Source: an uncultured Methanoregulaceae archaeon
GTDB taxonomy: Archaea; Halobacteriota; Methanomicrobia; Methanomicrobiales; Methanospirillaceae
Direction: 5' to 3'
Length of the DNA stretch: 64,000 nt
NCBI GenBank assembly: GCA_963841015.1
Contig: CAWJAX010000005.1
Location: forward strand, 192,001 to 256,000
Below, piece by piece: positions 6,098 through 63,166 of this stretch. Below the pieces are notes generated by a model, which ran no database searches, was not told the DNA's origin, and saw only the letters and a program-made list of their open reading frames with translations. Position 1 is the first letter of the stretch. Each line of letters begins with the position of its first letter. A program made the position numbers and the translations under genes.

Positions 6098-6778
6098 TTA
6101 TCCTTTTCGTGCAACAGTGACGATGAATGTACGGTTCCGGTAAACCACATCCACATCGGAAAAACCACACTCCTTCAGCCATTGAAGCTGAACCGATAGT
6201 TTTTCGTTCCGGTCAAGGGTGTCACGACGCTTGAGAATTTCCGCGTGTTCCCGTGCATTCATGGGACCGTTGTGAAGAAATTCATTCCAGTACTCAAGGT
6301 ACCTTTCCCGGAAATAGAGGGTATCGCCGTCAGCCTGATCAGCATTCACAAACAGCCCGCCGGGATTCAGTGCAGAAAATATTTTCCCGAACAGTGTGTG
6401 TTTGTCCTCAAACGTGAGATGATGTATGGAAAGTGCCGAACAGACCAGATCGTACTGCCCGACGGGTATCTTCCTGCTGTAATCACTGGCAATATAGGTA
6501 ATATTCTTTCTGTCTGAAAACCTCTGCCGGGCAATTTCCAGCATGTTTTCAGAAATATCCAGCAGTGTCATATGCGCATTGGGGAATTTCTGTAGTATAA
6601 GAGCACTCAATAAACCCGTACCTGCTCCGATATCAAGGATTGATGGCTCGGGTATTGAAGACTCTGACGCCCAGACTGCTGTTGAATAAAACTGCTGCAT
6701 ATCCGGAATGACGAACTCCCGCTGGGAATCGTATTCTTGAGCAATAGCATCGAATGCCTTTTTTATATGTTCCATCAT
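6098..6778 (-). CDS. Class I SAM-dependent methyltransferase
   Basis: ILDIGAGTG, LDISENML, YDLVCSALSIHH, LNPGGLF. Confidence 0.9.
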   Translation of the reverse strand: MMEHIKKAFDAIAQEYDSQREFVIPDMQQFYSTAVWASESSIPEPSILDIGAGTGLLSALILQKFPNAHMTLLDISENMLEIARQRFSDRKNITYIASDYSRKIPVGQYDLVCSALSIHHLTFEDKHTLFGKIFSALNPGGLFVNADQADGDTLYFRERYLEYWNEFLHNGPMNAREHAEILKRRDTLDRNEKLSVQLQWLKECGFSDVDVVYRNRTFIVTVARKG

Positions 6779-6911
6779 ATCCCCCGCTTTTTAAAAAGAT
6801 TGTAAAATCCACAAGGTTATCTTATTCTTGGCAAAGAAGATAAAAAAAATTATTCACCTGCCAACCGGGAATGGTTCTCACTGGTTAAAACCCAGACTAT
6901 CCAGCTCAGGT

Positions 6912-8342
6912 TCACAAGCTTTCAGCGTCAAACGATACCAGTTTAGACTGGTACGTCCCGTCAATAAAATCAACCTGACGCATCTTTGCCTGCTCGCCTT
7001 CAATCTGTAAAGGATAGCACCCCGTAAGGCAGCCGGTACAAAGATTTTCCCGGTCAAAACCAATCGCCTCTATAAGCGCAGAGAGGGAGACATGGTGAAG
7101 AGTTGTAGCGGTAATGCTATGCCGGACCTCATCCTCAATTCTGTTGTTCGCTATCAGCTCTTCTCTCGTGGGCATATCAACACCAAGATAGCAGGGTGCT
7201 TTGATTGCCGGAGATCCTATACGCATATGGATCTCCCGGGCACCAGCTTCCCGCATCATGTTGATAATTCTGCGTGATGTAGTCCCCCGCACAATACTGT
7301 CATCGACAAGCACTACAGACTTCCCCTTCAGGTGAGCGGGAATAGGGTTGAGTTTTATTCGCACCGCTTTTTCCCGCTCCTTCTGGGTCGGCATGATAAA
7401 CGTGCGTCCCATGTACCTGTTCTTCATCAGGGACTCCACAAACGGGATCTTTGAATGTTCAGCGTATCCGATAGCATACGCAGTCCCGGAATCAGGAAGA
7501 GAACAGACAGAATCCGCCACCACCGGATCCTCCTCATACAGTTTTTGCCCGATTCTACGCCGCACATCATAGACCAGCACACCGTCGATGATTGCATCTG
7601 CACGAGCGAAGTAAATATATTCAAAGATGCAATGTGCACGCTTACCTGCAATCGCTACCTGGTTACACTTTATTCCTTCAGCATCTATCCTGACCAGTTC
7701 CCCGGGCCGGACATCCCTTATGAATTTCCCATTGAGGGCATCAACCGCTACACTCTCAGACGCAACCATGTACCCTTTATCGGTCTTACCAATACAGAAT
7801 GGCTTGATACCCAGCGGATCCCGGAAGGCATAGATAATACCGTCAATCATCATCACGACGGAATAGGATCCCCTGAGTTTCCGCATGCAGCGGTTAACTG
7901 CGTCCTCGACACATCCGGTATTACTTATTTCGTCAATAAGGATCTTTGCAATGATCTCCGTATCAGTGGTGGTAGTAAAGATCTGGCCAGCCTGTTCATA
8001 TTCGGCTCTGAGTTCTGCAGTGTTTACCAGATTGCCATTATGGGCAATCGAAATGAAATGGTCCTTGAACTGGAAATTAAGAGGCTGGATATTCTCCAAA
8101 AGATTTGACCCGGTTGTCGGGTAGCGTACATGTCCGATACCGGCATTCCCTTTCAGGTCGTTTAAAACTGTGGGGGAAAAAACATCGGCGACGAGACCCG
8201 GACCCTTAAACTTCCGGAGGTTCGTGCCATCATAAGTGGAAATCCCGGCACTTTCCTGCCCCCGGTGCTGGAGTGCGTACAGGGAGTAATAGAGCTGGAT
8301 CGATACACCGCCAGCATCGACGATGCCAACGATACCACACAT
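6912..8342 (-). CDS. purF: Amidophosphoribosyltransferase
   Basis: N-terminal MCGIVG, LQHRGQESAG, GHVRYPT, HNGN, VDDSIVRGTT. Confidence 0.97.
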   Translation of the reverse strand: MCGIVGIVDAGGVSIQLYYSLYALQHRGQESAGISTYDGTNLRKFKGPGLVADVFSPTVLNDLKGNAGIGHVRYPTTGSNLLENIQPLNFQFKDHFISIAHNGNLVNTAELRAEYEQAGQIFTTTTDTEIIAKILIDEISNTGCVEDAVNRCMRKLRGSYSVVMMIDGIIYAFRDPLGIKPFCIGKTDKGYMVASESVAVDALNGKFIRDVRPGELVRIDAEGIKCNQVAIAGKRAHCIFEYIYFARADAIIDGVLVYDVRRRIGQKLYEEDPVVADSVCSLPDSGTAYAIGYAEHSKIPFVESLMKNRYMGRTFIMPTQKEREKAVRIKLNPIPAHLKGKSVVLVDDSIVRGTTSRRIINMMREAGAREIHMRIGSPAIKAPCYLGVDMPTREELIANNRIEDEVRHSITATTLHHVSLSALIEAIGFDRENLCTGCLTGCYPLQIEGEQAKMRQVDFIDGTYQSKLVSFDAESL

Positions 8343-8351
8343 GGTAAAACT

Positions 8352-8534
8352 CTAATGCGTTGGAATTTTTGGTCGCTTTGTGGTCCACTTATAGCTGCGC
8401 ATTTTAGTGCTTCTGCCAAACCCGCAGGCAGAGCATTGTTTTTTCTGGGCGTGAAACGAGATTTTCCCACAGCGCCTGCAGGCGACATGGGTGAACTTGT
8501 TCATCTTTCCCATTGATGGAGTGCCTTTTGACAT
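8352..8534 (-). CDS. rpl37e: 50S ribosomal protein L37e
   Basis: [20 protein letters not shown] zinc ribbon; follows the Sm gene as is usual in archaea. Confidence 0.97.
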
Positions 8535-8545
8535 GTTACTTCACC

Positions 8546-8776
8546 TTATTGTTCCAGCGATGGGGATATATAGATAACATTATCCCCGCGTACGATGAGC
8601 GTACCTACCTTCTGAACCTGTCCCTTCTCCTCTTCCTCCGCCTTGTCAAGCACGAGGTTCATATGAACATCATATCCCTGGAGAATACCCCGTATTTCTC
8701 TCCCACCCTTGAGAGATACAATAACGGGCTGTCGGTTCAGCACCTGATCCAAAATATCCAACGGCCTTTTGGTCAT
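8546..8776 (-). CDS. Sm-like archaeal protein (SmAP/Lsm)
   Basis: [23 protein letters not shown]. Confidence 0.95.
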
Positions 8777-19424: not shown

Positions 19425-22400
19425 ATGAGAGTAAAACCTGGCATTTTACTAATCATTGGTTTGCTGTTCCTGGCGGGAACCGTTACGGCAGTCGGGATTC
19501 CGGATACCCTGACTGTTACTACGGACAAAGCCTGGATCATAGCCAATAATGTGGATCAATCCACTATCATCGTAAAAGTAACGAATACAACCTCGGATCC
19601 TGGTCCTGTACCAGGGATAATCGTAAACCTTGAAGTTGATCCGTTATATGGAAACATCAGTCCCATACAAGTCACCACAAATATATCGGGAATGGCTTCA
19701 AGCACCTTCAAAGTGAGCACCAAGAGTGGTGCAGCACAAATAAATGCATCCATACCCGCGGGGGTTTCTGGTTCCACAATGCAGAATATTGATCATAACA
19801 GTGCCTATTTTGCAGATTTTACGCATCCGATCAATGGAACCGTTGCATCCGAAGTTCCATTTAATGTATCACTTACTGACCAATACCGGAATCCTGTGGA
19901 TAATCGAAGAGGCAACCATATAATAAAACTCCACGTTCATGGTCCTTTCCCGGATGACTGCGGTTTTGCTGAAGCCGGCTATGCACATGATATTTCCCCC
20001 ACGCTTGATGCAAACGGGAACACCACAGTAAATATCAAATTAACCTCTAAAATAGGTGACAACAACGTTGCGATGGACGCATATGAGAGTATCCCGAACC
20101 AACTCGAATGGATCTCTGCCGAGGCAATTGGCAAACCGTTTTCGATGACGCAGGTTATTTCACCTTCGGGATCTCCCCCGACGCTTCCCGCAGACGGGGT
20201 CAGTTATTTCACGATAATTTATAATTTGTTTGATGAATTCGGGAATCCAACGAACAAACAATTTATCTGGGTCAATACCTCCATCCCGGGGGAGGAACAA
20301 CAGTTCCTGTCAAACAATGTGGGTCAGGTAACGGTACAATATGGTCCGAGGTCTTCAATAGGTGAAATTGACATCATTGCAACATCAGTTGCAAATTCGA
20401 CACTTACCTTGACGCAAAGAGTAAAATTCAAGCACACGGGTGCGGAGATCATATCCCTTACCGCAAATCCTGATACTATGCCAAGTCAGGATGCCAATCC
20501 ACTATTTACATCAAATATTATCGCAACGGTTGCGGATATTTCGGGAAATGCAGTTCCCGGGGAAACGGTAGACTTTATTATAGAAAATATAACCTACGAT
20601 GCATCATATAACGTGACGGCAGATCCCAGTCTTTTAAGTTCAAGCGCTATCACCGACGTATATGGACGGGCCTTGGTCCAATTCAGACCCGGGAACTTTA
20701 CAGCAGTTGGCAACCCCGGTTACAATGCAACGGCAACCGGGCATTGTATGATGAATGCAACGTGGAAAAATTCAACAAAAAAAGTTCCCGTCACCTGGAA
20801 GAATTATCCTTATCTGAGTCTGTCAACATCGGTAAATCCCCATACTGTTGAGATAAACAAAACTATTGATGTTACCATTGAGTTCAGAGGTGACGGGTTC
20901 GCATTGCAGCCCACACCCATCGATGTGGTCATGGTCATAGACAAATCGGGCAGTATGGAGAACTATAATATAGGCGGCATTACCCGGATGCAGGCAGCGA
21001 AAAATGCAGCAAGTACGTTTGTCAACAAAATGAATGAAGGGACTGACCGTATCGGTGTTGTAACCTTTGATCGAGAAGACACAGTTATCACTGACGCTCC
21101 TTTGGGCGCCCCCTTCTTAACTATTACGAACACGATCAACGCGATTGATCCTAATAATGGAGGGACTGCAATGCGCCAGGGCTTCAAACAGGGTATCGAT
21201 CATATTAAGGCGAACGGCAGGCCGTCAGCAGTCCGGGCAGTTATTCTCATGACTGACGGGAACTGGAATTTAGGGGGAAGTCCCCTTGCTGTAGGAAGGG
21301 GCTATGATCTCAACACATGGGTCAGAGATAACCGGGATCGTGGCGTAGCCACCAAATATTATGGATTCTCCGGTTTGGCAACAGATTTTGAGGATCAGGA
21401 CTACCGCTGGTATTCTGGACTTGGGGGTAATCTATCTTCCAGTAGTGACACGGTCGTGAGGACACCTCGCAAGATTGATCCAGCAACAGGATTCGACGTG
21501 GCTTCTCGAACGACTGAATCGAGAAGCGGGGGATCCTACTATATTAATGGCCAGTTTACTCAGCAGAACATGTCGATCTACGCAAAGGACAATAATATAC
21601 GGTTGTACACCTTGTCGTTTGCCATGAACATCCCCGCAGACGAGCGTAATGCTCTTATTACTCTTGCAAATTCAACCGGGGGATTCTACCGGCATGCTCC
21701 CACCCAGGCCGATTTAGAAGCATTCTATACAGAAATCGCCGGAGACCTGAAAGATACCGCTGGTGTAAACGCCACCATGACGGCAGATTTCGATAAGATT
21801 AATGTCACGGGTTTTGAAATGGATGGAGACCAGGTATACGACTATGTATACCATCCAACGGAATCGACAAAGATCCGATGGCAGGATGGGATAACAAATG
21901 TGTCTGATCAATCCGCCGATTGGCTTGCAGATAGTAAACTGGACTTCAACATCGGAACAATAAAAGTAGGTCAATACTGGAATGCGACATTCCGGCTGAA
22001 GGTCAAACAGGGTGGCTTGATTGATGTATTCGGCAATCATTCAACGGTATCTTTCAATGGGGGGGCAGAGAACCTGTATCTTCCTCAAACATTCATCACA
22101 GTAATACCCAACCTTTCGGTCACGAATATTACCATGAAAACAATAACTCTCGACAATCTGATGTGTACCGAGACCGGGGAGATCAAGGCACTCTTTCCGG
22201 TACAATGGAACACAAACTATACAGGAAACAAGACCCTCACGGAAAAGGTCTATTACCGTATTGATAATAAGGGACCCTGGGTTCAATTCGACATAAAAAC
22301 ACACCCCTATGATCCACTTACCATGGAATATGTGAATTATGCACAACTCGATGTGACAAAACTCCCATGGGGAAACTACACGATTCAGGTACGTGCAACT

Positions 22401-22556
22401 GCCTCCGATGCGCCTGATGCAACAGCTGAAACCGTCAGTAAAACGGTAGGGGGACGAGGGAAAACGTTTATTAAACTTGAAGCTCCCCCGTTCCTGGACG
22501 ATACGCAGTTCTTCAATCAAAATCCGTGGGGGATTGTGGATAGCAGGAGCATTTAA
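19425..22556 (+). CDS. Large secreted Ig-like (invasin/Big_1-type) plus vWA domain protein, probable adhesin
   Basis: Signal peptide, Ig-like repeats (ATVADISGNAVPGETVDF), vWA with MIDAS DKSGSM, ILMTDG, NSTGGFY; many N-x-S/T sequons. Confidence 0.85.
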   Translation: MRVKPGILLIIGLLFLAGTVTAVGIPDTLTVTTDKAWIIANNVDQSTIIVKVTNTTSDPGPVPGIIVNLEVDPLYGNISPIQVTTNISGMASSTFKVSTKSGAAQINASIPAGVSGSTMQNIDHNSAYFADFTHPINGTVASEVPFNVSLTDQYRNPVDNRRGNHIIKLHVHGPFPDDCGFAEAGYAHDISPTLDANGNTTVNIKLTSKIGDNNVAMDAYESIPNQLEWISAEAIGKPFSMTQVISPSGSPPTLPADGVSYFTIIYNLFDEFGNPTNKQFIWVNTSIPGEEQQFLSNNVGQVTVQYGPRSSIGEIDIIATSVANSTLTLTQRVKFKHTGAEIISLTANPDTMPSQDANPLFTSNIIATVADISGNAVPGETVDFIIENITYDASYNVTADPSLLSSSAITDVYGRALVQFRPGNFTAVGNPGYNATATGHCMMNATWKNSTKKVPVTWKNYPYLSLSTSVNPHTVEINKTIDVTIEFRGDGFALQPTPIDVVMVIDKSGSMENYNIGGITRMQAAKNAASTFVNKMNEGTDRIGVVTFDREDTVITDAPLGAPFLTITNTINAIDPNNGGTAMRQGFKQGIDHIKANGRPSAVRAVILMTDGNWNLGGSPLAVGRGYDLNTWVRDNRDRGVATKYYGFSGLATDFEDQDYRWYSGLGGNLSSSSDTVVRTPRKIDPATGFDVASRTTESRSGGSYYINGQFTQQNMSIYAKDNNIRLYTLSFAMNIPADERNALITLANSTGGFYRHAPTQADLEAFYTEIAGDLKDTAGVNATMTADFDKINVTGFEMDGDQVYDYVYHPTESTKIRWQDGITNVSDQSADWLADSKLDFNIGTIKVGQYWNATFRLKVKQGGLIDVFGNHSTVSFNGGAENLYLPQTFITVIPNLSVTNITMKTITLDNLMCTETGEIKALFPVQWNTNYTGNKTLTEKVYYRIDNKGPWVQFDIKTHPYDPLTMEYVNYAQLDVTKLPWGNYTIQVRATASDAPDATAETVSKTVGGRGKTFIKLEAPPFLDDTQFFNQNPWGIVDSRSI

Positions 22557-23692: not shown

Positions 23693-23710
23693 AGACAAAT
23701 ATTTATATAA
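23693..23710 (+). promoter_or_regulatory. Putative TATA box of the tasA-like/sipW operon
   Basis: TTTATATA at 23702-23709 with purine-rich upstream bases, about 100 nt before ATG 23811. Confidence 0.5.
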
Positions 23711-23810
23711 CGTAACCACAAAGTGGTAATTATCCTTTTTACGGGAAGAATTCGTTCAATTCGCTTGAGAGTCTTGAAAAAATAAGGTGGGAAAATTGAG
23801 AAAAAAAGAA

Positions 23811-24488
23811 ATGAGTACGAAAAAAGTTCTCCTAATCAGCATCATGCTGATAGCACTGACTGCACTCCTGACAGGTGTTGGAACAATGGCATATTTCAGT
23901 TCAACACAAACAAGCGGACCAAACCTGCTCAGCACCGGAAGCATTTCAATTAATGTAAATGGTCAGGATCCCTGGTCAGGCACCTTCAACGCAACGCTTG
24001 CAGATGTGAAACCCGGATTAAAGCGTTGGGGAAATGTTACCTTGCAGAACACCGGGCAGAATCAGGCTGATCTCTGGTTGAATACCATAAATGTTGTTAC
24101 CGACAACGGATCAAATACTTCTGCTGAAATTCTGGAGCCCTACGCCTTTGATATCGATGGGGTAATCCGGTATGATTTGTATAATAACACGGGTTCGGGT
24201 CTTCAGCCAATAATCGTGGATACTGATGATTATACAATCAGCACGGGTTCCCATAATTTAACCGGCGCACTTCAGACCACGGCTGTGAAAAATCAATGGA
24301 TTTACCTTGGTAACATTCCCTCCGGAGCAACGTGGCAGATTAACCAGAGTTATATGATGGACGGGAATGTCACCAACTGGGCACAGACGGATAATATGAC
24401 GTTTAACGTTGTATTTTATGCCCAACAAAGCCAGGGCAATCCCCAGCCGGCAGCTCCGTCACCAGAACTGCCCGGACACGGAAGATAA
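23811..24488 (+). CDS. TasA/camelysin-like fibre subunit with SipW-class signal peptide
   Basis: MSTKK-hydrophobic-GVGTMA|YFS..N..STGSI resembles TasA GGGTWA|AF..; TasA-fold motifs VKPG, VTLQNTG, NWAQTDNMTFNVVFYAQQ; directly upstream of a SipW-type peptidase. Confidence 0.85.
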   Translation: MSTKKVLLISIMLIALTALLTGVGTMAYFSSTQTSGPNLLSTGSISINVNGQDPWSGTFNATLADVKPGLKRWGNVTLQNTGQNQADLWLNTINVVTDNGSNTSAEILEPYAFDIDGVIRYDLYNNTGSGLQPIIVDTDDYTISTGSHNLTGALQTTAVKNQWIYLGNIPSGATWQINQSYMMDGNVTNWAQTDNMTFNVVFYAQQSQGNPQPAAPSPELPGHGR

Positions 24489-24496
24489 TCCATAGT

Positions 24497-24516
24497 GTGC
24501 AGGTAATTTCCTGCAC
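24497..24516 (+). promoter_or_regulatory. Intergenic stem-loop between tasA-like gene and sipW
   Basis: Perfect 7-bp inverted repeat GTGCAGG-taattt-CCTGCAC, 8 nt after the stop. Confidence 0.45.
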
Positions 24517-24534
24517 CGCTACATTTAGGGTGAC

Positions 24535-25068
24535 GTGATTAAGGAGATGAATACGCAAAACCTGAGATTAGTTGAGCCTCAAATAAAAAAACTGGGGAGA
24601 ATCGCGGCAATTCTCATCCTTATTTTAATTATTGCAGGATCATTATTCACGATTTTTACCCCTTTTTTTGGCTGGAGGACTGAGGTCGTCATTTCAGGGA
24701 GTATGGAGCCTGCAATATCAACAGGAAGTGTCGTTATCGTCCGCCCGGTAATTCCTGATACTCTCCGAAAAGGAGATGTAATCATGTATTATTCTCCCGA
24801 TAAATCGAGCCTGACCACACATCGTGTATTTTATGTAGCATCTGAGCCCTCACTCCAGTTCATCACCAAAGGAGATGCCAACAATAATTCTGATGTGATT
24901 CCTGTCACGCCGGGTCAAGTCGTCGGAATAGTTGCATTCACTATACCGTATCTGGGTCTTCTTGCCCAGTTCATCAAAACACCATTTGGATTTACACTTT
25001 TCCTGCTGATCCCGGCAGTGATTCTTATCGGACGCGAGATGCTTGATCTTTGGAGAGAGATGGAATAA
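24535..25068 (+). CDS. sipW: SipW-type signal peptidase I (S26B)
   Basis: VISGSMEP (catalytic Ser), GDVI, TTHRV (His), ITKGDANN..D, IPYLG, N- and C-terminal TM helices. Confidence 0.92.
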   Translation: MIKEMNTQNLRLVEPQIKKLGRIAAILILILIIAGSLFTIFTPFFGWRTEVVISGSMEPAISTGSVVIVRPVIPDTLRKGDVIMYYSPDKSSLTTHRVFYVASEPSLQFITKGDANNNSDVIPVTPGQVVGIVAFTIPYLGLLAQFIKTPFGFTLFLLIPAVILIGREMLDLWREME

Positions 25069-25091
25069 CAGAAGAGAAAAGCTGCCAGACC

Positions 25092-26456
25092 ATGAAAAAA
25101 ACAACCATCGTAATAATCGTTTTAACTCTCGTGGTAATTTCTCTCAGCACCTTTGGTACGACACATGCACATTTCACCTCCGGGCAGGTTACAGGTCCGC
25201 ATCTTATTTCCACATGGCAATCCTATTTTTGGATCCAGACCAGTCAGGCTGACTATCAGATGGGGATATTAGAGAATGTTGATATAATATCCAGTCCTGG
25301 TAACGTGAAACTGGTCATGAGAAATATATCTCCGACAATGTATGCAACATTCGGAAGCGGATCAACTACTTTTCAGCAGTATAATGTTTCTAACAACACC
25401 TGGAACTCGCTGGCAAATACACTTGGCAGTATAAGCAACGGAGGGGCTGTTGCAAAAGATAATCTTAGTTACCTTTACGCGTTACGGGGAGGAGGTACTA
25501 CAAATTTTTACCGGTACTCAATCCCGTTCAATAACTGGTCATCCATGACCGTAACTCCCGCCACCATTAATTCCGGTGGCGCTTTGGTATATACCGGCGG
25601 AAATTACCTTTACGCGTTACGGGGGGGCGGACAGCGTAACTTATACCGGTATTCAATGCCCTTCAATAACTGGTCATCCATGACCGCAACTCCCGCCACC
25701 ATTAATTCCGGTGGCGCTTTGGTATATACCGGCGGAAATTACCTTTACGCGTTACGGGGGGGCGGACAGCGTAACTTATACCGGTATTCAATGCCCTTCA
25801 ATAACTGGTCATCCATGACCGTAACTCCCGCCACCATTAATTCCGGTGGCGCTTTGGTATATACCGGCGGAAATTACCTTTACGCGTTACGGGGAGGAGG
25901 TACTACAAATTTTTACCGGTACTCAATCCCGTTCAATAACTGGTCTTCCATGGCCGCAACTCCCGGTCCTGTAAATGCTGGCGGGGCTCTGGTATCTGAT
26001 AACGGGAACAATATTTATGCTTTTAACGGTTCTTCGCAAAAATTCTGGCTCTATAATATTTCCACAAACACCTGGAACGATACTCTTGTTTCTGATCCCC
26101 CCGGTCTGGCAGGCTGGGGGGGCAGTCTTTCGTACCGTCCTGGTTCTTCCGGATATCTGCCACTTGGTAAACTTACTTCAGCCGTATATGATACCGGGAA
26201 TTCTGGTTCACGATGGGACTCCCTTTCCTGGGATAGCACACTTGTTGCAGGAACAAATGTCACGTTTGAGGTGCGAGCGTCCGATATTCCTTATACCAGC
26301 ACAGATTTATTACCTGCATGGCAGCAATCCGGCTGGCCATCACCAGTTAATTCAGGATTACCAACCGGAAGGTACATTCAATGGCGTGCAACCCTCTTCA
26401 CGACAGATACATCAGGAACGCCAATTCTTAGTGAGGTGCGGGTATGGTACTCATAA
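25092..26456 (+). CDS. SipW-signal, Kelch-like beta-propeller protein (putative fibre tip adhesin)
   Basis: MKK-hydrophobic-GTTHA|HFTS signal; six YLYALRGG..Y..W blades; C-terminal beta domain (GTNVTFEVRASD..GRYIQWRATL..TPILSEV). Confidence 0.82.
   Translation: MKKTTIVIIVLTLVVISLSTFGTTHAHFTSGQVTGPHLISTWQSYFWIQTSQADYQMGILENVDIISSPGNVKLVMRNISPTMYATFGSGSTTFQQYNVSNNTWNSLANTLGSISNGGAVAKDNLSYLYALRGGGTTNFYRYSIPFNNWSSMTVTPATINSGGALVYTGGNYLYALRGGGQRNLYRYSMPFNNWSSMTATPATINSGGALVYTGGNYLYALRGGGQRNLYRYSMPFNNWSSMTVTPATINSGGALVYTGGNYLYALRGGGTTNFYRYSIPFNNWSSMAATPGPVNAGGALVSDNGNNIYAFNGSSQKFWLYNISTNTWNDTLVSDPPGLAGWGGSLSYRPGSSGYLPLGKLTSAVYDTGNSGSRWDSLSWDSTLVAGTNVTFEVRASDIPYTSTDLLPAWQQSGWPSPVNSGLPTGRYIQWRATLFTTDTSGTPILSEVRVWYS
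25469..25965 (+). repeat. Intragenic tandem repeat, 135 bp x about 3.7 copies
   Basis: Unit starts TTACCTTTACGCGTTACGGGG at 25469, 25604, 25739 and 25874; near-identical at nucleotide level. Confidence 0.97.
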
Positions 26457-26517
26457 GCACAAGTGCGCAAGTATTCATCCCATTAAGGAAATACCTCGTA
26501 ATGCTGAGGGGGGTATA

Positions 26518-27336
26518 TTGACGATTTCAGGGATTACTTACCGGAATTCATTATTCCCTCTGGCGGGATTCATTTTCATCCTTCTCTTTCTCCTGCCTGT
26601 ACCTGTTTTTGCACAGGGCCCCGTTGACCTCACTTTCGAAGAAACGGGTGTTTTCCCCTGGAGTATCACGGGAATTCTACCAGGAGATCATGGTTCTACC
26701 TTTATCGATCTTCACAATAACGGAACCGAGAGTGGGATTGTCTATATCTGGGTTGACAATATCAGCACTACCGATCGATACGGTAATCCGGGAGGCGGGC
26801 TGGCAAATTATATGTACTTCAATGTCTCAAATCATGACCTTACCAGCACAATAAATCTTCCAGCCCGAATCAATTCCTTTCCAAAAGCTCCCCTCCTCGA
26901 GGACCATTTCATCATTATCGATTCATTCAAACCCGGAGATACCATCAGACTTAACTGGACATGGGAATTTGAAGAAACGGGACAACCACAGAATGATGCA
27001 CAGAATAATACTCTTCACTTCAACATCTCATACACGCTGGTGAATCTGACCGCCCCCGTGATACCAACGCCAGTACCAACGGGTATCCAACCTGGTTTGC
27101 CGGGGGGAACAGGAATGAATCCCCAAAATCCTTCCCTGTTCGAGCCCGGAGGGATCCCGGGATTAAATCCTGCTCAACGTCCCCAACTCAGAGCACCAAT
27201 TGAAGAGCCGCCTGAAATGGAGATCGAGCAACCGGAACTCCCTGAATACGGATGCATTATGGCGATAGGGCTCATCGCCATAATTTTCATAATCTCCGTT
27301 CTGGTGCTCTGGAAACGGAAAAAAGACAGGAAATAA
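26518..27336 (+). CDS. TasA-fold-like protein with Pro-rich linker and C-terminal TM anchor (putative fibre base)
   Basis: TTG start after GAGGGGGGT; signal ending VFA|QG; ILPGD, IDLHNNG, FKPGDT, NDAQNNTLHFNISY; TM plus KRKKDRK. Confidence 0.72.
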   Translation: MTISGITYRNSLFPLAGFIFILLFLLPVPVFAQGPVDLTFEETGVFPWSITGILPGDHGSTFIDLHNNGTESGIVYIWVDNISTTDRYGNPGGGLANYMYFNVSNHDLTSTINLPARINSFPKAPLLEDHFIIIDSFKPGDTIRLNWTWEFEETGQPQNDAQNNTLHFNISYTLVNLTAPVIPTPVPTGIQPGLPGGTGMNPQNPSLFEPGGIPGLNPAQRPQLRAPIEEPPEMEIEQPELPEYGCIMAIGLIAIIFIISVLVLWKRKKDRK

Positions 27337-27539
27337 AAGGAAGAGAGGAATGTATGGGTATTTCTTCTTTTGAATGTCATAACAAACATCTGCCAGGTTC
27401 CCGTGGTAAATCGTTTTGGGAGTATGCAACCGGTGCACCCGAGGATTTTTTTTTATTGATTCAGAAGGGCAGCAACATCAACAGATTCATAGAAATTATA
27501 TATTACCGGGTCAAGAGTGTGAAATATGAGGAATAGCCA

Positions 27540-29861
27540 ATGAAACTGTTTGATTCTTCACGGCAGGACAAGCCCGTTTTTTTCCCTTGTTTTACATTTG
27601 TGTTTTTCATTCAGATCTTCTTTATTCTCCTGCTTTTACTATTCAACCCGGTTCATGCAGCTACCGATACTACGCCGGGATCAGCTCCTCAACTGGGATG
27701 GATGAATACATTCGAACAACCTGTTGAAGGAGGGAAATATTCAATCATTGCTGTAAGTGATGGGGGATCCGTGGCCATAGGAAATAGCAAATCCCTTCCA
27801 GGAAGTTCCAGTCTATACATCCTCAAAACTGATACAAATGGAAATAAAGTGTGGGAATGGACCGATGCTGGAAGTACCTACGAGGGATATTCTATTATTG
27901 AAACACGGGATAAAGGGTACATTATCGCCGGGAGTTCCAATACTACCACCACCAACGGGATTATCCTCAGGAAACTTGATCAGGCCGGAAAAATGACATG
28001 GACACAGCTATTCAATAAAGGTGAATATTACTTCGGTAATTATGTCAGTCCAACACGTGACGGTGGATTCATCGTTGCCGGGTCCGTGTTGAGGAATGAC
28101 ACTTCTCAATCATCACTCTGGGATGGTTACACTCTCAAAACCGATGCTGAAGGGAGAGAACAGTGGACCGGTTTTTTTAAGGGTGAAAAAAATGATTTTG
28201 CCAGGTTTATCCGCCAGACTGAAGATGGAGGGTACATAGTTGCCGGAATTACCGAAAGCTATGGCATTAACGGTGTTCCCTCTACGTACCTGCACAAAAT
28301 GAATGAATTTGGTAATAAAGAATGGTTTACTACCTATGGGACCGGGCCGGGGGATGAAAAACTATCGGTCATTCAAACGCCCGATGGAGGATATATCATC
28401 ATGGGAATCTCCCTGCCCGTTGCCATCAATCAAGGATATAAGGATCTTTTCCTGGTCAGAACCGATGATCATGGAAAAGAACTGTGGAGAAAAAATATTC
28501 CCGTGAGGGGGAGAGCCACAGGTAACATCCTTATCCCGGCGGCTGAAGGTGTAACCGTTATTGCAGGTTCTTACCAGGGATCTGAACGAGAAAAAACCGG
28601 CGAGATAATCATACTGGACATTGACCTGAACGGCAACGAGAAGCAGAACCGGACATTCAGTATTGGAAAATCTATCGATATTCAGGATATTGCGGTTGTC
28701 CCGGGTGAGGGATATTTCGTTACCGGTTTAGTATCCGGACCAGGAGGCCTTGAAAAAAAAGGGTTTACCATTATTAAGATACTCGATACCCCTTACCGCA
28801 CTGAAGTAACCGTAAAAAACTCATTCGAACTCACGGTAATAACAAAAGATGCTAAAACGGGGACATTTATTGGAGGGGCTCATGTATATCTCGATGGTAG
28901 GTCTACCGGAAGCACCTCGGAGCAGGATGGAAAGCAGATTCTCCGTGATGTTGAGAAGGGCTCACATACTATCAGGGTGGCAAAATCAGGATATGAAGAG
29001 ATTACCCGACCAGTAGATATTACTGAAAAGAAGCAGATCACCTTCACTCTCAACCGATCAAACGTGATACCGGTACAAATCCACGGATCAACAGATGAAA
29101 AGATCGATATTGTTTTTGTGCCTTCAAAAACTTCATTTAACTGTAATTCCAAAACAAAAATCCAGACCGACGCATATACCGGTAATCAGCAACGATTCAT
29201 CCAAGATGTAAACAATAAAATTGATGTATTTTTAACATTGGATTCCCTGACATCCGGCTCGGTGGGTTTGCCCGGGGATTTCAGGGAGCGTTTCAATTTT
29301 TATTACTACTGGGATACCGGAAGTTTCGCTGATGCTTTCGACGGTTGTGCTGGAACACTTCCCAATGAATTCTGGAATGATGCACCATTCACTGATGTGG
29401 CAATTATCATGTACCCATCCTATGAGGGTCGCTATTCCGGCTCTCCCTGTGAACCAATTGGGTGTGCAAACGGCCTGGGGCCCGGATCAGGATCCTGGCT
29501 GAAAGCACCAGCTGATTCTCCGATGATTTTTCTGCATGAGAGCGGGCATGTGGTCTTTGGTCTGATTGATACCTATTGCGGGGATACCTATTACGTGGAA
29601 AATTCTCCTTTTCCCAATGTCTGGAGTTCTGAGTCCTCATGCAAAAAAAAAGCCGAGCAGGAACGCTGGGATAGCACAAGCTGCCGGCAAATTTTAAAAC
29701 CTCCCAGCAGCCGTCCGATAGATCCCTGTGTGAAAAATTTCTGGAGAGCGGATACAGATCCCGATATCATGGGCAGCGGGGCATATTCCGGCAGGTTCGG
29801 CAATGCATCGACATCACGTATCCGCCATATTTTTGATACGATCAACAGGTGGCAGAAATGA
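27540..29861 (+). CDS. Secreted beta-propeller + PEGA-like + M64-like zinc metallopeptidase
   Basis: Signal peptide; repeated T.DGGYIIAG blades; AHVYLDG..HTIRVAKSGYE; KIDIVFV, FNFYY, FLHESGHVVFGLIDTY. Confidence 0.78.
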   Translation: MKLFDSSRQDKPVFFPCFTFVFFIQIFFILLLLLFNPVHAATDTTPGSAPQLGWMNTFEQPVEGGKYSIIAVSDGGSVAIGNSKSLPGSSSLYILKTDTNGNKVWEWTDAGSTYEGYSIIETRDKGYIIAGSSNTTTTNGIILRKLDQAGKMTWTQLFNKGEYYFGNYVSPTRDGGFIVAGSVLRNDTSQSSLWDGYTLKTDAEGREQWTGFFKGEKNDFARFIRQTEDGGYIVAGITESYGINGVPSTYLHKMNEFGNKEWFTTYGTGPGDEKLSVIQTPDGGYIIMGISLPVAINQGYKDLFLVRTDDHGKELWRKNIPVRGRATGNILIPAAEGVTVIAGSYQGSEREKTGEIIILDIDLNGNEKQNRTFSIGKSIDIQDIAVVPGEGYFVTGLVSGPGGLEKKGFTIIKILDTPYRTEVTVKNSFELTVITKDAKTGTFIGGAHVYLDGRSTGSTSEQDGKQILRDVEKGSHTIRVAKSGYEEITRPVDITEKKQITFTLNRSNVIPVQIHGSTDEKIDIVFVPSKTSFNCNSKTKIQTDAYTGNQQRFIQDVNNKIDVFLTLDSLTSGSVGLPGDFRERFNFYYYWDTGSFADAFDGCAGTLPNEFWNDAPFTDVAIIMYPSYEGRYSGSPCEPIGCANGLGPGSGSWLKAPADSPMIFLHESGHVVFGLIDTYCGDTYYVENSPFPNVWSSESSCKKKAEQERWDSTSCRQILKPPSSRPIDPCVKNFWRADTDPDIMGSGAYSGRFGNASTSRIRHIFDTINRWQK

Positions 29862-30454
29862 AGCGTTTCGTTTTCGCAGGTCTGATTTTTCTGGTGCTCC
29901 TGCAGGGCATCTGGTTTGCCTCCGCAAATGACTCGCCCGATTATTCTAAGATTGTTGTTGTCCACCTCAACATAAATAAAAGCAGTATCACAGAAAAGTC
30001 AGTTGAGATGCGCTACGGCCACCCCCCAAATATCGAAGGTAGAAGCGGGGACTTTAAAGGGACGCTGAAATCAACTGATGGTTCCACGATCCGGGAATTT
30101 ACTCTTTGGGATCCCCGCTATCAGCTGGGAGATGTCCTTGAAAAAGACAATGAATCTTCCGATTATCTTTCCGGGTACCTGACATATTCTGATAATGCAG
30201 ATCTTGTCCTCATACTTCCGTACTATGAAAACCAGATGACGTTTGAGTTGCATGACAAAAAGACCGGCACTCTGTTAAAAAAAGTGAACATGTCACAGGC
30301 AATAACAAAATTTCAATCAAACTATCCCAAAGATCCCGGAAGTGTTTCTGTATTACCTATCCAATTCGATAAATCCGTTATATATGTGATAACCGGAGTT
30401 GTGATTTCGATACTTATCATCGGAATGATTCTCTCAATGGTTCGAAAAAAATGA
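29858..30454 (+). CDS. Membrane-anchored hypothetical protein coupled to the peptidase
   Basis: ATGA overlap with the upstream stop; signal peptide, extracellular beta domain, C-terminal TM plus RKK. Confidence 0.8.
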   Translation: MKRFVFAGLIFLVLLQGIWFASANDSPDYSKIVVVHLNINKSSITEKSVEMRYGHPPNIEGRSGDFKGTLKSTDGSTIREFTLWDPRYQLGDVLEKDNESSDYLSGYLTYSDNADLVLILPYYENQMTFELHDKKTGTLLKKVNMSQAITKFQSNYPKDPGSVSVLPIQFDKSVIYVITGVVISILIIGMILSMVRKK

Positions 30455-59676: not shown

Positions 59677-60765
59677 TCAGACCGGTTCATAGAGCGTCGT
59701 ACGGCGTTTGAGTGTCCGTCCGATATCCTCTGCAATCCGCTGCATCTCAGAAGGATCAAGGTAATCTGTATTGATTGCACCAGCCCCTTTTGAAATGCTC
59801 TCTTCGAACATCGTGCCGCCAAGATCGTTGGCACCTGCAACCAAACTTAACTGGGCCATCTTGATGCCTTCTTTTACCCAGGAAACCTGGATATTCTTAA
59901 AGTTGTCCAGAAAGAGGCGTGCTACAGCGACCATCAGGAGATCTTCTCTTCCTGTCGCTCCTGCCCGCGCTTTTCCAGCACGGAAGAGGGGAGTGTTCAT
60001 GTGGATAAACGAAAGAGGGACAAATTCTGTAAACCCGCGCGTTTCATCCTGAATTTCACGCAGGATTGCAAGATGGTGCACCCGGTCTTCATCAGTCTCA
60101 CAATGACCATACATAATTGTTGCAGTGGTTGGAATGCCCAGGGCATGCGCCTCCCGGATAATGCGAATCCATTCATTTGTTGAAACCTTCTGTGCACAGA
60201 TTTTTTTACGGACTGAATCAACAAGGATCTCTGCTGCCGTGCCGCACATTGACCCGAGTCCTGCCGCTTTCATGTCCATCAGCACATCATGAGTGCTCAT
60301 ATTGCTCTTTTTAGCAGCATAGGCAACTTCCATCGGATTGCTGGCATGAAGATGGATGCCAGGTGCAGCCTCATGAATCCAGCGGTAGACATCACAATAG
60401 GATTGGGCATTAAAATCCGGATGGAGCCCGCTGACCGTACAGATTTCGGATACTTCGCGCATTTTTGCGAGGGACGCCTTTTTCTGGATCTCGGACTTGT
60501 CGTGATAATAGATACCGTCATCACCAGGTTTTTTTGAAAAGCCGCAGAAACCGCAGGCATTGACGCAGAGATTGGTCACATTGATGTTCTGGTTCCTGAC
60601 ATAGGTAACTGCGTCACCAACCCGTCGTTCACGCATCTCGTCTGCAGCTGCTGCGATTTCCCAAATCTGTCGATTCCGGACCTGAAACAGATCCAGTGCA
60701 TCGTCGTTACTCATACGGTGGCCGGTTTTGATATCATCAAGCAGAGTCCGCAGCTGATTATCCAT
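59677..60765 (-). CDS. cofH: FO synthase subunit CofH
   Basis: TNLCVNACGFC, GTAAEIL, TATIMYGH, GFTEFVPL, NIQVSWVK, GANDLGGT. Confidence 0.9.
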   Translation of the reverse strand: MDNQLRTLLDDIKTGHRMSNDDALDLFQVRNRQIWEIAAAADEMRERRVGDAVTYVRNQNINVTNLCVNACGFCGFSKKPGDDGIYYHDKSEIQKKASLAKMREVSEICTVSGLHPDFNAQSYCDVYRWIHEAAPGIHLHASNPMEVAYAAKKSNMSTHDVLMDMKAAGLGSMCGTAAEILVDSVRKKICAQKVSTNEWIRIIREAHALGIPTTATIMYGHCETDEDRVHHLAILREIQDETRGFTEFVPLSFIHMNTPLFRAGKARAGATGREDLLMVAVARLFLDNFKNIQVSWVKEGIKMAQLSLVAGANDLGGTMFEESISKGAGAINTDYLDPSEMQRIAEDIGRTLKRRTTLYEPV

Positions 60766-61236: not shown

Positions 61237-62322
61237 TTAGATCAGTTTATACAGGGTTGTCCGCTCCTGCAGGGTTCGCCCAATGTCTGACACTATCCGT
61301 TCCATGACCACTGGATCAAGGTAATCTGCATCGATTGCCCCTGCATTTACAGATATATCATCGGAGAACATGGTGCCGGCAAGATCATTGCCTCCGGCGA
61401 GTAACGACATCTGAGACATCTTTTGTCCAAGCTTCCCCAACGGGACCTGAATATTATTGAAATTATCGAGGAACAGCCGGGAAACAGCGGTCATCAGCAG
61501 ATCTTCCCGACCTGTCGCGCCTGCACGGGCAATACCCTCTTTAAAAAGCGAGGTATTGGTGTGGATATAGGTCAGAGGAACCAGTTCAGTAAAGCCATGT
61601 GTTTCATCCTGAATCGTGCGCAGTATGCCAAGATGCTCAGCCTGGTCCTTTGCAGTTTCACAGGAACCGTACATAATAGTCGCTGTCGAAAATATCCCCA
61701 GCGCGTGTGCTTCTTTGATAATTCGGACCCATTCAGCTGTACCCAATTTCCGGGGACAGATCACTTTTCTCACAGAGTCCACAAGGATCTCTGCCGCAGT
61801 ACCCTGTAATGACCCAAGACCAGCAGCCTTCAATCGTTCAAGAACTTCAACACTGGAAAGATTGCTTCCTGATGCCGCATAGGAGACTTCATCCGGGCTG
61901 AACGCATGGAGATGAATATGCGGTCCTACCTCATGGACCCATGAGATTAGATCACAGTAAGTGTCGATGGTAAATTCTGGATGCACGCCGCTCAGTGGAC
62001 AGATCTCAGTAACACCACGCTTGAGGGCAAGACGTACCTTTGCCTGAATTGCCAGCTTATCATTGCAATAGGCGCCATCATCATCAGCACTCCTCCCAAA
62101 GCCGCAGAAACCACAGAGATTCTTACAGATATTGGTCACATGGAGGTTCTGGTTTTTCACATACGTTACAATGTTGCCTGCTTTGCGCTCCCGAACCTCA
62201 TCTGCAGCAGATATAATTTCGAAAACATTCCGGTCCCGTATTTCCAGAAGCCGGGTTGCCTCGACCTCAGTAAGACGATGTCCACCGAGTACATCTGATA
62301 GGAGTGTTGAAATATCTGACAT
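61237..62322 (-). CDS. cofH: CofH paralog (radical SAM)
   Basis: TNICKNLCGFC, GTAAEIL, TATIMYG, ATGREDL, GGNDLAGT. Confidence 0.85.
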   Translation of the reverse strand: MSDISTLLSDVLGGHRLTEVEATRLLEIRDRNVFEIISAADEVRERKAGNIVTYVKNQNLHVTNICKNLCGFCGFGRSADDDGAYCNDKLAIQAKVRLALKRGVTEICPLSGVHPEFTIDTYCDLISWVHEVGPHIHLHAFSPDEVSYAASGSNLSSVEVLERLKAAGLGSLQGTAAEILVDSVRKVICPRKLGTAEWVRIIKEAHALGIFSTATIMYGSCETAKDQAEHLGILRTIQDETHGFTELVPLTYIHTNTSLFKEGIARAGATGREDLLMTAVSRLFLDNFNNIQVPLGKLGQKMSQMSLLAGGNDLAGTMFSDDISVNAGAIDADYLDPVVMERIVSDIGRTLQERTTLYKLI

Positions 62323-62337
62323 AATTACCGCAACTAT

Positions 62338-63084
62338 CTAACGCTGTTTTTTTCTGTCCTTTTTCTGCGGTTTTTTCGTTTTGTCCTCCCGGGAGTGCAG
62401 ATAGAGTTCATGGAGTACCATGATGACTATGATGATGATAGTCACTTCAACAATATGGAGTGGGAGGTACCCGACCAGCGGGATGGTGAACAGTGCCTTT
62501 CCAATGATCCATTCATCCTTTACCGGCTCGATAACACCCAAACCCTGGTAAACTGCGACCTGATCAATATTTTTGTTATTATCCCCTTTTGTGATATATC
62601 CGCCGTGAGGTTGGTAATACTTTGAAATATTTTCAAGATCCAGTTGCAGGTATTTTGGCAGGTCTGCTGTGTCAGCTTTGACCATTGCCCGGTGGATAAT
62701 AGGATGTACACCTGATGAGATGAAGGGTATTGGAACCACAGGATTCTTTGCCCCGTTTGGCTGGTAAATAATCACATCCCCGTAATCCTCGAACTTTTTA
62801 TAGCCTGTTGTATTTCCCTGGACCCAGGTCTGTAATGTACCGAACCGGTCCTTCTGGACGACGACAACAAGATCTCCCACATTCATGTGAGGTACCATGC
62901 TCTCAGATTCGATAGTGACAACCGCAGGCCAGGTACCGCTGATTAAGAACAGGGTAAGTGCGATCCCGCCAACAACCGCCACGATCCAGATCAGATCGCG
63001 CGCCAGGGACACCCCCCAGTGATCACTTTCCCGGAATTTTGAGACCAGCGTGCGGATACCCCGTTTATTATCGTTATCAGCCAT
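62338..63084 (-). CDS. sec11: Signal peptidase I, archaeal Sec11 type
   Basis: WPAVVTIESESMVP, GDVIIY, PIIHRA, YITKGDNN, IPLVGY. Confidence 0.9.
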   Translation of the reverse strand: MADNDNKRGIRTLVSKFRESDHWGVSLARDLIWIVAVVGGIALTLFLISGTWPAVVTIESESMVPHMNVGDLVVVVQKDRFGTLQTWVQGNTTGYKKFEDYGDVIIYQPNGAKNPVVPIPFISSGVHPIIHRAMVKADTADLPKYLQLDLENISKYYQPHGGYITKGDNNKNIDQVAVYQGLGVIEPVKDEWIIGKALFTIPLVGYLPLHIVEVTIIIIVIMVLHELYLHSREDKTKKPQKKDRKKQR

Positions 63085-63166
63085 TTTTGCTCTCATTCTC
63101 TGATTTTTTATAATATGTTTAACCCTTCATAATTAACCATGTCGGATTATAAAATGCCGGAAGATT

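Follow-up and report, generated by a model that had tools for sequence, protein, structure and literature searches.

TasA-type fibres and a related gene cassette in Methanoregulaceae

In the TasA fibres of Bacillus subtilis, the donor strand is described as the mature N-terminus of the subunit (residues 28-38) and the C-terminus as an inter-subunit contact, and the N-terminus of the accessory protein TapA, which resembles the TasA strand, has been modelled in the TasA groove (PMC9674648); the role of TapA and the way in which these fibres end and are attached are presented as still debated (PMC9674648, PMC10151520). In the haloarchaeal Tat-fimbriae (tafi), the tip protein TafC is reported to give the first strand, with TafE as the adapter, TafA as the shaft and TafF as an anchor that combines a pilin-like N-terminal region with C-terminal membrane helices (PMC11821415, PMC12337348); the dedicated signal peptidase TafD is described as needed on the basis of deletion and complementation (PMC11821415), and a cryo-electron microscopy structure of the Natrinema filament has been reported (PMC12337348). 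Loci of the TasA superfamily are said often to contain a signal peptidase I together with predicted tips and anchors (LPXTG or SLH, in bacteria), and the same preprint maps an "archaeal TasA-like" cluster beside bacterial TasA, none of whose proteins it presents as characterised (10.64898/2026.01.04.697558). Homologues of PF12389 have been noted in several archaeal orders, including orders of methanogens, in a section that does not name Methanomicrobiales (PMC9245690). Here we describe a cassette of four genes, denoted g1, g2, g3 and g4, in a 64,000-nucleotide stretch of DNA (hereafter, the window, to which all coordinates refer) from an uncultured Methanoregulaceae archaeon (contig CAWJAX010000005.1, positions 192,001 to 256,000).

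All four genes, identified by reading the open reading frames (ORFs) of the window, lie on the plus strand within 23796/23811-27336. The first, g1 (23796-24488 from a TTG start or 23811-24488 from an ATG start; 230 or 225 aa), encodes a TasA/Peptidase_M73-like protein and is followed by g2 (24547-25068 from ATG, 173 aa, or 24535-25068 from GTG, 177 aa), a signal peptidase I of the Sec11/SipW type, that is, the endoplasmic reticulum (ER) type. The third gene, g3 (25092-26456, plus strand, 454 aa), encodes a Kelch protein that we propose to be a donor-strand-only cap or nucleator, and g4 (26518-27336, plus strand, 272 aa) begins with a TTG codon behind the G-rich ribosome-binding site GAGGGGGG. 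An initial annotation, made from the sequence without database searches, had interpreted these genes as a complete TasA-type fibre operon that comprises, besides a dedicated peptidase of the SipW type, a tip and a base, and all seven sequence features that it reported are present in the sequence. The proposal itself is supported by the family matches of the encoded proteins and, more strongly, by the distribution of the g1 strand and core over g3 and g4. We consider it probable that the cassette builds, without chaperone or usher, a glycosylated TasA-superfamily surface fibre that has a tip, a shaft and an anchor and is assembled by donor-strand complementation; that such a fibre is adhesive, and that it is a pilus rather than a matrix component, we infer.

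Distribution of the g1 strand and core over g3 and g4

In g1 (ATG numbering), a signal peptide (residues 1-27, with the cleavage site GTMA/YF) is followed by a presumed donor strand (28-42; 23892-23936), a jelly-roll core (43-207) and a conserved C-terminal tail (208-225). The g3 protein consists of a signal peptide (1-26, TTHA/HF), a g1-like strand (27-41; 25170-25214), a Kelch beta-propeller and a C-terminal domain of ~115 aa, and g4 of an ordinary Sec signal peptide (1-32, VFA/QG), a TasA-like core (34-177; 26617-27048) without the N-terminal donor strand, a Pro-rich linker, a C-terminal transmembrane helix and the tail KRKKDRK.

Comparison with hhalign of an alignment of 34 diverse g4 relatives (A3) with the alignment of the g1 family (A2) yielded a probability of 96.1% and an E-value of 3.1e-9 over 138 columns, in which g4 residues 34-177 were aligned with g1 residues 43-207 only; the signal peptide of g4 was not aligned with that of g1, which provides an internal control. 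The g4 core begins where the g1 core does and has no counterpart of g1 residues 28-42. Among 118 g4 relatives, picked from 150 listed, the distance from the signal h-region to the core, a crude hydropathy estimate, has a median of 10 aa (range 3-16) compared to 26 aa in g1, which suggests that the absence of the N-terminal strand is a trait of the whole g4 family. The comparison of the first 75 aa of 89 g3-family proteins with the g1 family gave the complementary result (hhalign, 88%, E 3.2e-6): the aligned part is confined to g3 residues 15-41 and g1 residues 17-42, a stretch that runs from the last part of the signal peptide across the cleavage site and through the mature strand.

Lacking a TasA core, g3 is predicted only to donate its strand; lacking the strand, g4 is predicted only to accept one in its core, in addition to being anchored in the membrane. 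The strand-only g3 and the core-only g4 therefore supply, together with g1, a donor-only, a donor-plus-acceptor and an acceptor-only-plus-anchor part, so that a cap, a shaft subunit and an anchor are all found in one cassette at the level of sequence architecture. This complementary half-subunit architecture is new here, and is what one would expect of a donor-strand fibre that is capped at one end and anchored in the membrane at the other.

In the corresponding assembly model, g1, g3 and g4 would be exported by Sec, and g2 would cut g1 after GTMA and g3 after TTHA, so that a strand at the new N-terminus becomes exposed (YFSSTQTSGPNLLST in g1, HFTSGQVTGPHLIST in g3). The g3 strand would fill the groove of the first g1 subunit, with g3 capping and probably nucleating the free-groove end, whereupon each g1 strand would enter the jelly-roll of the next g1 to form the shaft. 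The Kelch propeller, a likely binding module, would be located at the distal tip, and g4 would take the last free g1 strand, which would end growth and tether the fibre to the membrane. Assembly in the reverse order, with g4 capturing a g1 before growth proceeds at the free groove and g3 finally capping the product, would lead to the same final structure.

The major subunit and the associated signal peptidase

For g1, the TTG start at 23796 appears more likely because GGTG and TTG are conserved, with ATG in place of TTG in L001 and L008, two of the related loci considered below; the initial annotation, which placed the gene at 23811-24488, was correct as to the gene but its start is probably 15 nt earlier. 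The protein matches PF12389 with 31.8 bits (cut-off 22.5), residues 4-210 being aligned with positions 3-195 of the 196-position profile, and TIGR04088 (cognate_SipW, the SipW-dependent-type signal peptide) with 25.2 bits for the whole protein and 27.9 bits for the first 60 aa (cut-off 19). The latter match extends over residues 13-44, that is, the h-region, the GTMA/YF site and the first 17 mature residues, and Y28, F29 and S30 are invariant in the g1 family. The search with hidden Markov models of the SipW-cognate signal and of the TasA/peptidase M73 family that had been suggested as a check thus places g1 above both cut-offs, and the earlier description of a TasA-like subunit with a SipW-class signal holds, including the motif GTMA/YFS.

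The AlphaFold2 model of g1, based on 19 sequences, has a predicted local distance difference test (pLDDT) of 78.8 and a predicted template modelling score (pTM) of 0.74 and is all-beta after the signal helix, with pLDDT below 50 for residues 22-37. A Foldseek search of the Protein Data Bank (PDB) with this model produced 22 matches at E<=0.001, among them B. subtilis TasA (5of1_A; E 6.4e-4, query TM-score (TMq) 0.39, 208 columns); the matches listed, where 7ueg does not appear, are led by the TasA structures 5of1_A and 5of2 both in alignment length (204-208 columns) and in TMq (0.39 and 0.36). The fold is compatible with TasA and does not by itself prove the relationship.

The nine N-x-S/T sequons reported previously for g1 were counted again (3.9 per 100 aa); the other exported proteins, g3 and g4, each have 2.6 per 100 aa compared to 0.6 in g2, and g1 may accordingly be a glycoprotein. 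The C-terminal tail of g1 (24432-24485; the last 18-20 residues, QQSQG-P-PAAP-PEL-GH-R) is among the best-conserved parts of the family, down to homologues with 49% identity, and might be an inter-subunit contact like the TasA C-terminus or a site of modification.

The ATG at 24547 is the more likely start of g2 because AAGGAG sits in front of it. The g2 protein scores 106.8 bits against TIGR02228, the archaeal signal peptidase I model (cut-off 51.85), and 111.1 bits against NF046067, the Bacillus SipW equivalog, which is below the cut-off of 190; it is SipW-like but, by the standard of NCBI, not a SipW orthologue. The description of g2 as a SipW-type peptidase stands in this sense, by virtue of the match to the archaeal model although the equivalog cut-off is missed. 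Among solved chains, human SEC11A and SEC11C come closest (E 3e-8). Hydrophobic segments are present at both ends of the protein, and Ser56 in GSMEP, His96 in TTHRV and GDANNNSD at 113-120 (177-aa numbering) are the presumed catalytic motifs, as in the S26B family. That g1 and g2 form a pair of a TasA-type subunit and its peptidase is, in our judgement, very likely.

A second signal peptidase I gene, a candidate for the general enzyme, is located outside the cassette (62338-63096, minus strand, 252 aa), in agreement with the initial annotation, which had called it housekeeping. Its translation carries the motifs SESM, IIHRA and KGDNNKNID, scores 50.0 bits against TIGR02228, just below the cut-off of 51.85, and shows no similarity to g2 at E<=1 in a tblastn search. 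It appears to carry a large insertion because its residues 35-233 span the 158-position archaeal model. The general archaeal model fits the supposedly specialised g2 far better than this second peptidase. It is a reasonable inference that the second gene encodes the general ("housekeeping") enzyme and g2 the dedicated one.

The Kelch protein g3

A match to Kelch_6 with 31 bits (cut-off 25.3) identifies the propeller of g3, and Pfam contains no match for either the C-terminal 120 aa or residues 27-103. The mature N-termini of g3 and g1 in the window are identical in 8 of 17 residues, and distant g3 relatives have the motif F-x-D-S-E-T-S...N-x-F-x-A-W at the position of the strand. Together with the profile comparison (88%), these results confirm the Kelch-like protein with a signal of the g1 class that had been proposed from the sequence. 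In the six-frame translation of the 64 kb, the pattern GTxAxF[STN] occurs only in g1 and g3, which is a weak control because the pattern was derived from these same two proteins. The TapA model TIGR04087 has no match to the g3 N-terminus at E<=10 and none to the whole protein at E<=0.1, so that g3 would be a functional analogue of TapA, via its g1-like N-terminal strand, rather than a homologue.

The coding sequence of g3 contains tandem repeats of 135 nt (25469-25965, plus strand; 3.7 copies with 92% matches according to TRF), the unit of which corresponds to one 45-aa Kelch blade. Homologues of g3 differ in length in steps of 45 aa (319, 364, 409 and 454 aa), and the orthologue in L001 spans ~505 codons. 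The number of blades seems to vary through gain and loss of repeats, and some of the short forms could stem from assembly collapse of the repeats.

The same fibre could be formed with g3 acting only for a time as nucleator or chaperone, the role proposed for TapA, before it is displaced or lost. TapA is described as giving its N-terminus for the folding of TasA, with a role in the filament past initiation regarded as unlikely (PMC10151520), and the strand is all that g3 and g1 have in common. In a linear fibre, however, a strand donated to the first subunit has no competitor, so that g3 should stay in place, and a large, fast-evolving propeller with a variable number of blades is more in character with a binding module that is exposed than with a catalytic helper. 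A transient role of g3 appears unlikely on these grounds, and a permanent cap is the version that we prefer.

The membrane-anchored protein g4 and its family

The long ORF that starts at 25975 is an upstream extension of the g4 frame over g3. In the AlphaFold2 model of g4, residues 244-271 form a C-terminal hydrophobic helix, which, along with the core identified by hhalign (96%), agrees with the earlier description of a membrane-anchored protein with TasA-like motifs. TIGR04088 does not match the N-terminus of g4.

A phmmer search against 1.84 billion representatives retrieved 207 relatives of g4 at E<=0.001 and 162 at E<=1e-10, counted as clusters at 50% identity. In these relatives, the g4-type domain almost always follows directly behind the signal peptide, and for 92 of the best 150 listed, a hydrophobic segment is present within the last 130 residues. 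Among the 34 family members aligned, 16 match PF12389 at E<=0.01 and 13 contain CARDB domains; when the family profile was compared with the PDB, the only part matched was the CARDB/Fn3-like middle domain of the longer relatives. The nearest Atlas clusters according to language-model features (scores 0.90-0.92) consist of Bacillota proteins, and in one of these clusters 39% of the members carry PF12389 and 28% an LPXTG anchor, which we regard as a lead only.

The number of C-terminal helices differs among relatives of g4. A single helix is present in the protein from the window (27247-27336) and in 7 of 55 relatives (270-272 aa, 82-94% identical), and three or four are found in most of the others (337-397 aa). 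In the shallow g4 alignment (A1), one part of the helix of the window protein is aligned with helix 1 of the long forms and another part with helix 3, so that it looks as if it were a fusion produced by internal deletion.

An alternative in which g4 has no part in the fibre is that g1 forms bundles or meshes of a released matrix, g4 being an independent TasA-like surface protein. Matrix networks are reported for TasA and AbpX (PMC9674648; preprint 10.64898/2026.01.04.697558), and the signal peptide of g4 is of the ordinary type, unlike those of g1 and g3. Nevertheless, g4 is a g1-like core that is missing exactly the strand and is encoded in the same operon in all six informative loci, a membrane anchor is typical of its family (the 92 of the best 150 listed), and the nearest language-model clusters include the Bacillota proteins with PF12389 and LPXTG, if only as a lead. 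A released matrix is in our view improbable, to about the same degree as the transient g3, and we continue to favor an anchored fibre.

Conservation of the cassette

Close relatives of g1 were found in 11 genome loci (L numbers), 4 from Methanoregula, 6 from Methanoregulaceae and one, L005, labelled Chloroflexia; the best is L001, with a g1 that is 97% identical. In 10 of the 11, g1 is followed by g2 and then g3, and in the remaining one, L006, the contig stops 33 nt past g1. The position of g4 is uninformative in five loci (L006-L009 end earlier and L005 is chimeric), and the order g1-g2-g3-g4 is retained in all six that reach far enough without a chimeric join, which is the outcome, for Methanoregulaceae, of the synteny survey that the initial annotation had called for.

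Identity to the window sequences is 85-97% for g1, 62-94% for g2 (full-length matches), 63-89% for g4 (longest segment per locus) and 35-90% for g3; the g2 of L005 is fragmented into pieces of 39% and 75% identity. From this gradation it follows that the proposed shaft protein g1 is the most constrained part and the g3 propeller the least, a pattern that agrees with a shaft under constraint and a tip that varies.

The Chloroflexia label of L005 was considered as a sign of gene transfer and rejected because the contig is a chimeric join: it is Methanoregulaceae-like with a G+C content of 0.43 up to ~10.3 kb and 0.57 thereafter, and the break is inside the g3 homologue, which runs straight into radical-SAM/SPASM-like sequence. 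L006 contains tandem copies of g1 (6566-7234 and 8001-8669, 86% and 89% identical to g1 of the window), with the contig ending after the second; by analogy with tafi, these may represent a pair of major and minor subunits.

Evidence against a fibre

Several results count against the fibre interpretation. All TMq values listed for the g1 model are <=0.39, those of TasA (0.36-0.39) are low, and generic jelly-rolls (the enterotoxin C-domain at 6.5e-5 and PliG) have better E-values than TasA; the g1 model, whose fold the initial annotation had proposed to check, is a jelly-roll for which TasA gives the match of best coverage, albeit at low TM-scores. A hmmsearch of PDB sequences with the g1 profile found no match at E<=10, TasA chains included. 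The g4 model has a pLDDT of 52 and matches the TasA fibre (8aur_A) with a TMq of 0.36, a match that carries little weight because of the low pLDDT. An earlier comparison of g1 and g4 that used the shallow alignment A1 reached only 16% (E 0.0016) and has been superseded by that with the more diverse A3. For g3, TIGR04088 has no match on the N-terminus, and the strand, although conserved at 79% compared to 57% for the rest of the protein, is equalled in conservation by the C-terminal 48 residues. Finally, synteny is limited to close relatives (g1 at least 85% identical in all 11 loci), and the conserved order may stem from common descent as much as from function; it cannot by itself prove a functional link because the genomes are close and the flanking genes are syntenic too.

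Some of these points are also what would be seen if there were no fibre at all, with g1 as a secreted glycoprotein that stays monomeric, or as a protease of the camelysin type, and with unrelated surface proteins linked by descent as its neighbours: PF12389 is named after a metallo-endopeptidase, the g1 fold matches generic jelly-rolls, and synteny is confined to close relatives. However, the translation of g1 lacks an HExxH motif, on which ground we reject the camelysin-type protease, the splitting of g1 between g3 and g4 is hard to explain without strand exchange, and a signal peptidase gene adjoins proteins with the SipW-cognate motif. We regard this scenario as very unlikely, and the capped and anchored donor-strand fibre remains the interpretation that we adopt.

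Operon organization and flanking genes

The genes of the cassette are separated by 46-58 nt (g1-g2), 23 nt (g2-g3) and 61 nt (g3-g4). The TATA box TTTATATA of the operon promoter, at 23702-23709 (plus strand), is identical in all 11 sequences of the promoter alignment (A5; the window and 10 loci), in which the DNA upstream of this region is unalignable. The four co-oriented, closely spaced genes behind one TATA box that had been noted at the outset are therefore evident from the ORFs, the short gaps and the invariant element. Just 3' of the TATA box, a stem-loop listing contains the palindrome ACCAC-AAA-GTGGT (23715-23727, plus strand), which lies within the block ACGTAACCACAAAGTGGTAATTAT (23710-23733) that is near-invariant across the 11 sequences and has diverging flanks. 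The palindrome is a candidate operator, that is, a possible binding site for a regulator, or a possible hairpin of the 5' leader; the four-gene cassette itself contains no regulator gene.

A hairpin, GTGCAGG-taattt-CCTGCAC (24497-24516, plus strand), is located 9 nt past the stop codon of g1. Its stem is intact in the window and in three of the eight aligned loci (L001, L003 and L010; alignment A4); three further loci (L004, L007 and L009) retain it in altered form, and in the other two (L002 and L008) it is disrupted. It might raise the ratio of g1 to the accessory genes g2-g4. Oligo-T is an established terminator of archaeal transcription, and the run of nine T at 27446-27454 (plus strand), downstream of g4, is likely to terminate the operon. 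Ahead of the next gene, which starts at 27540, there is a TATA-like element, AAATTATATATTA (27494-27505, plus strand). A scan for sigma-70 promoters and rho-independent terminators gave 14 predictions versus 8.9 +/- 2.9 expected; it is not meaningful for an archaeon and was not used. An Rfam scan of the window identified two tRNAs only, both far from the cassette, and no paralogues of g1-g4 were found in the window by tblastn.

The syntenic flanks consist of a vWA/Big_1 protein and RadC upstream, and of proteins of 773 aa and 201 aa downstream. The former (19425-22556) is a surface protein of 1043 aa with Big_1/invasin-like and von Willebrand A domains and 29 sequons; it is syntenic in 7 of the 11 loci (L001-L005, L009 and L011), is separated from the cassette by the RadC gene, and may be another adhesin. 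The 773-aa protein (27540-29861) is secreted and has repeats, a PEGA/CarboxypepD_reg domain and, near the C-terminus, HESGH, with a weak match to Peptidase_M64 (E 0.078). The overlapping gene for the 201-aa protein (29849-30454), which has a signal and a C-terminal helix, does not match any family. Both of these genes lie behind their own TATA-like element; they keep their synteny with the cassette in L001-L004 and L011, and in L010 in part. The window also encodes, in keeping with a methanogen as its source, TfrA/TfrB, a thermosome subunit and two CofH paralogues; the latter, CofH-type radical SAM genes at 59677-60765 and 61237-62322 (both minus strand; TIGR03551, 474 and 417 bits), are ~470 nt apart, with a 135-aa ORF without a family match between them on the opposite strand.

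Comparison with known systems

We regard the cassette as an uncharacterised Methanoregula case of a known fibre design and not as a new kind, because tips, anchors and dedicated peptidases are already present in haloarchaeal tafi and in TasA-superfamily loci. The claim of the initial annotation that no such system has been characterised in methanogens holds insofar as none has been studied there, but it overstated the novelty, considering the published descriptions of tafi (PMC11821415, PMC12337348) and the mention of PF12389 homologues in methanogen orders (PMC9245690, 10.64898/2026.01.04.697558). We found no characterised system in a methanogen, and the supplements of PMC9245690, PMC12337348 and 10.64898/2026.01.04.697558 may already list Methanoregula loci; by title and abstract, among the matches listed, the literature on Methanoregula pili does not include a TasA-type fibre, and nothing in print was found on attachment or aggregation of Methanoregulaceae.

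Methanoregulaceae are major producers of methane in peat and freshwater sediments. If the model is correct, the cassette offers a small, four-gene target for the study of cell-surface fibres of methanogens, and, with a cap and an anchor that correspond to two halves of the subunit, polarity, nucleation and termination would become open to direct tests. The general picture of such fibres would not change, given that tafi and the surveys of the TasA superfamily already describe the kind. A wider proposal, for which we claim no more than tentative standing, is that of a minimal self-sufficient donor-strand pilus whose ends are set by a strand-only Kelch tip and a strand-less anchored TasA core, with a widespread family of such anchors and a role in attachment. 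Under this proposal, the strand-less anchors would be a widespread unrecognised family (the 207 clusters defined at 50% identity, the majority of them with an anchor at the C-terminus) that would explain termination and cell attachment of TasA-type fibres generally, and the Methanoregula fibre would attach to particles or syntrophic partners by a tip that varies through gain and loss of 135-nt blades.

By family, the closest system is tapA-sipW-tasA of Bacillus subtilis. The two have in common a major subunit with PF12389 and a SipW-cognate N-terminus, a small peptidase of the Sec11/SipW type encoded in the operon and an accessory protein, TapA in the one and g3 in the other, whose N-terminus mimics the donor strand of the subunit (for TapA, PMC9674648). 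In contrast to Bacillus, the order here is subunit-peptidase-cap-anchor, g3 is a Kelch propeller and no TapA homologue is present (TIGR04087 matches only the N-terminus of g1, with 12 bits), g2 scores below the SipW equivalog cut-off (111 versus 190 bits), and the host is an archaeon with probable N-glycosylation. Moreover, Bacillus is without a dedicated terminator comparable to g4, a strand-less, membrane-anchored TasA-like protein.

By design, the closest are the tafi of Haloarcula hispanica and Natrinema sp. J7-2, along with the tafi-like DUF1102 clusters of Thermococcales and Archaeoglobales. Judged by the published descriptions (PMC11821415), the cassette lacks the features listed for tafi and is set apart from them. 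Export here would be by Sec, in contrast to Tat, as there is no twin-arginine in the N-termini of g1, g3 and g4; g1 matches PF12389, and neither DUF1102 nor DUF5305 (TafG) was detected at E<=0.1 among the 8 proteins scanned. The peptidase g2 is a single-domain protein of ~175 aa, whereas TafD is described as having two domains and four helices (PMC11821415), the tip carries a Kelch propeller instead of a laminin-G-like domain, and the cassette is without a regulator gene.

AbpX and other TasA-superfamily loci, as well as the AbpA bundling pili of Pyrobaculum, resemble the proposed product in being donor-strand fibres of the TasA superfamily (10.64898/2026.01.04.697558, PMC9245690). The peptidase linked to AbpX is, unlike g2, described as having ten helices (10.64898/2026.01.04.697558), and the abpA locus is described as having a TapA-like partner, AbpB, and no dedicated peptidase (PMC9245690). 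With chaperone-usher pili (type 1 and P), the predicted fibre would share a linear architecture based on N-terminal donor strands and end subunits that are incomplete in one function (PMC9674648, PMC10151520). No chaperone or usher is encoded here, and we draw an analogy without claiming homology. The tip adhesin of type 1 pili is without a donor strand, so that the half-subunit polarity of the Methanoregula cassette would be the reverse, with the strand at the tip and the groove at the base.

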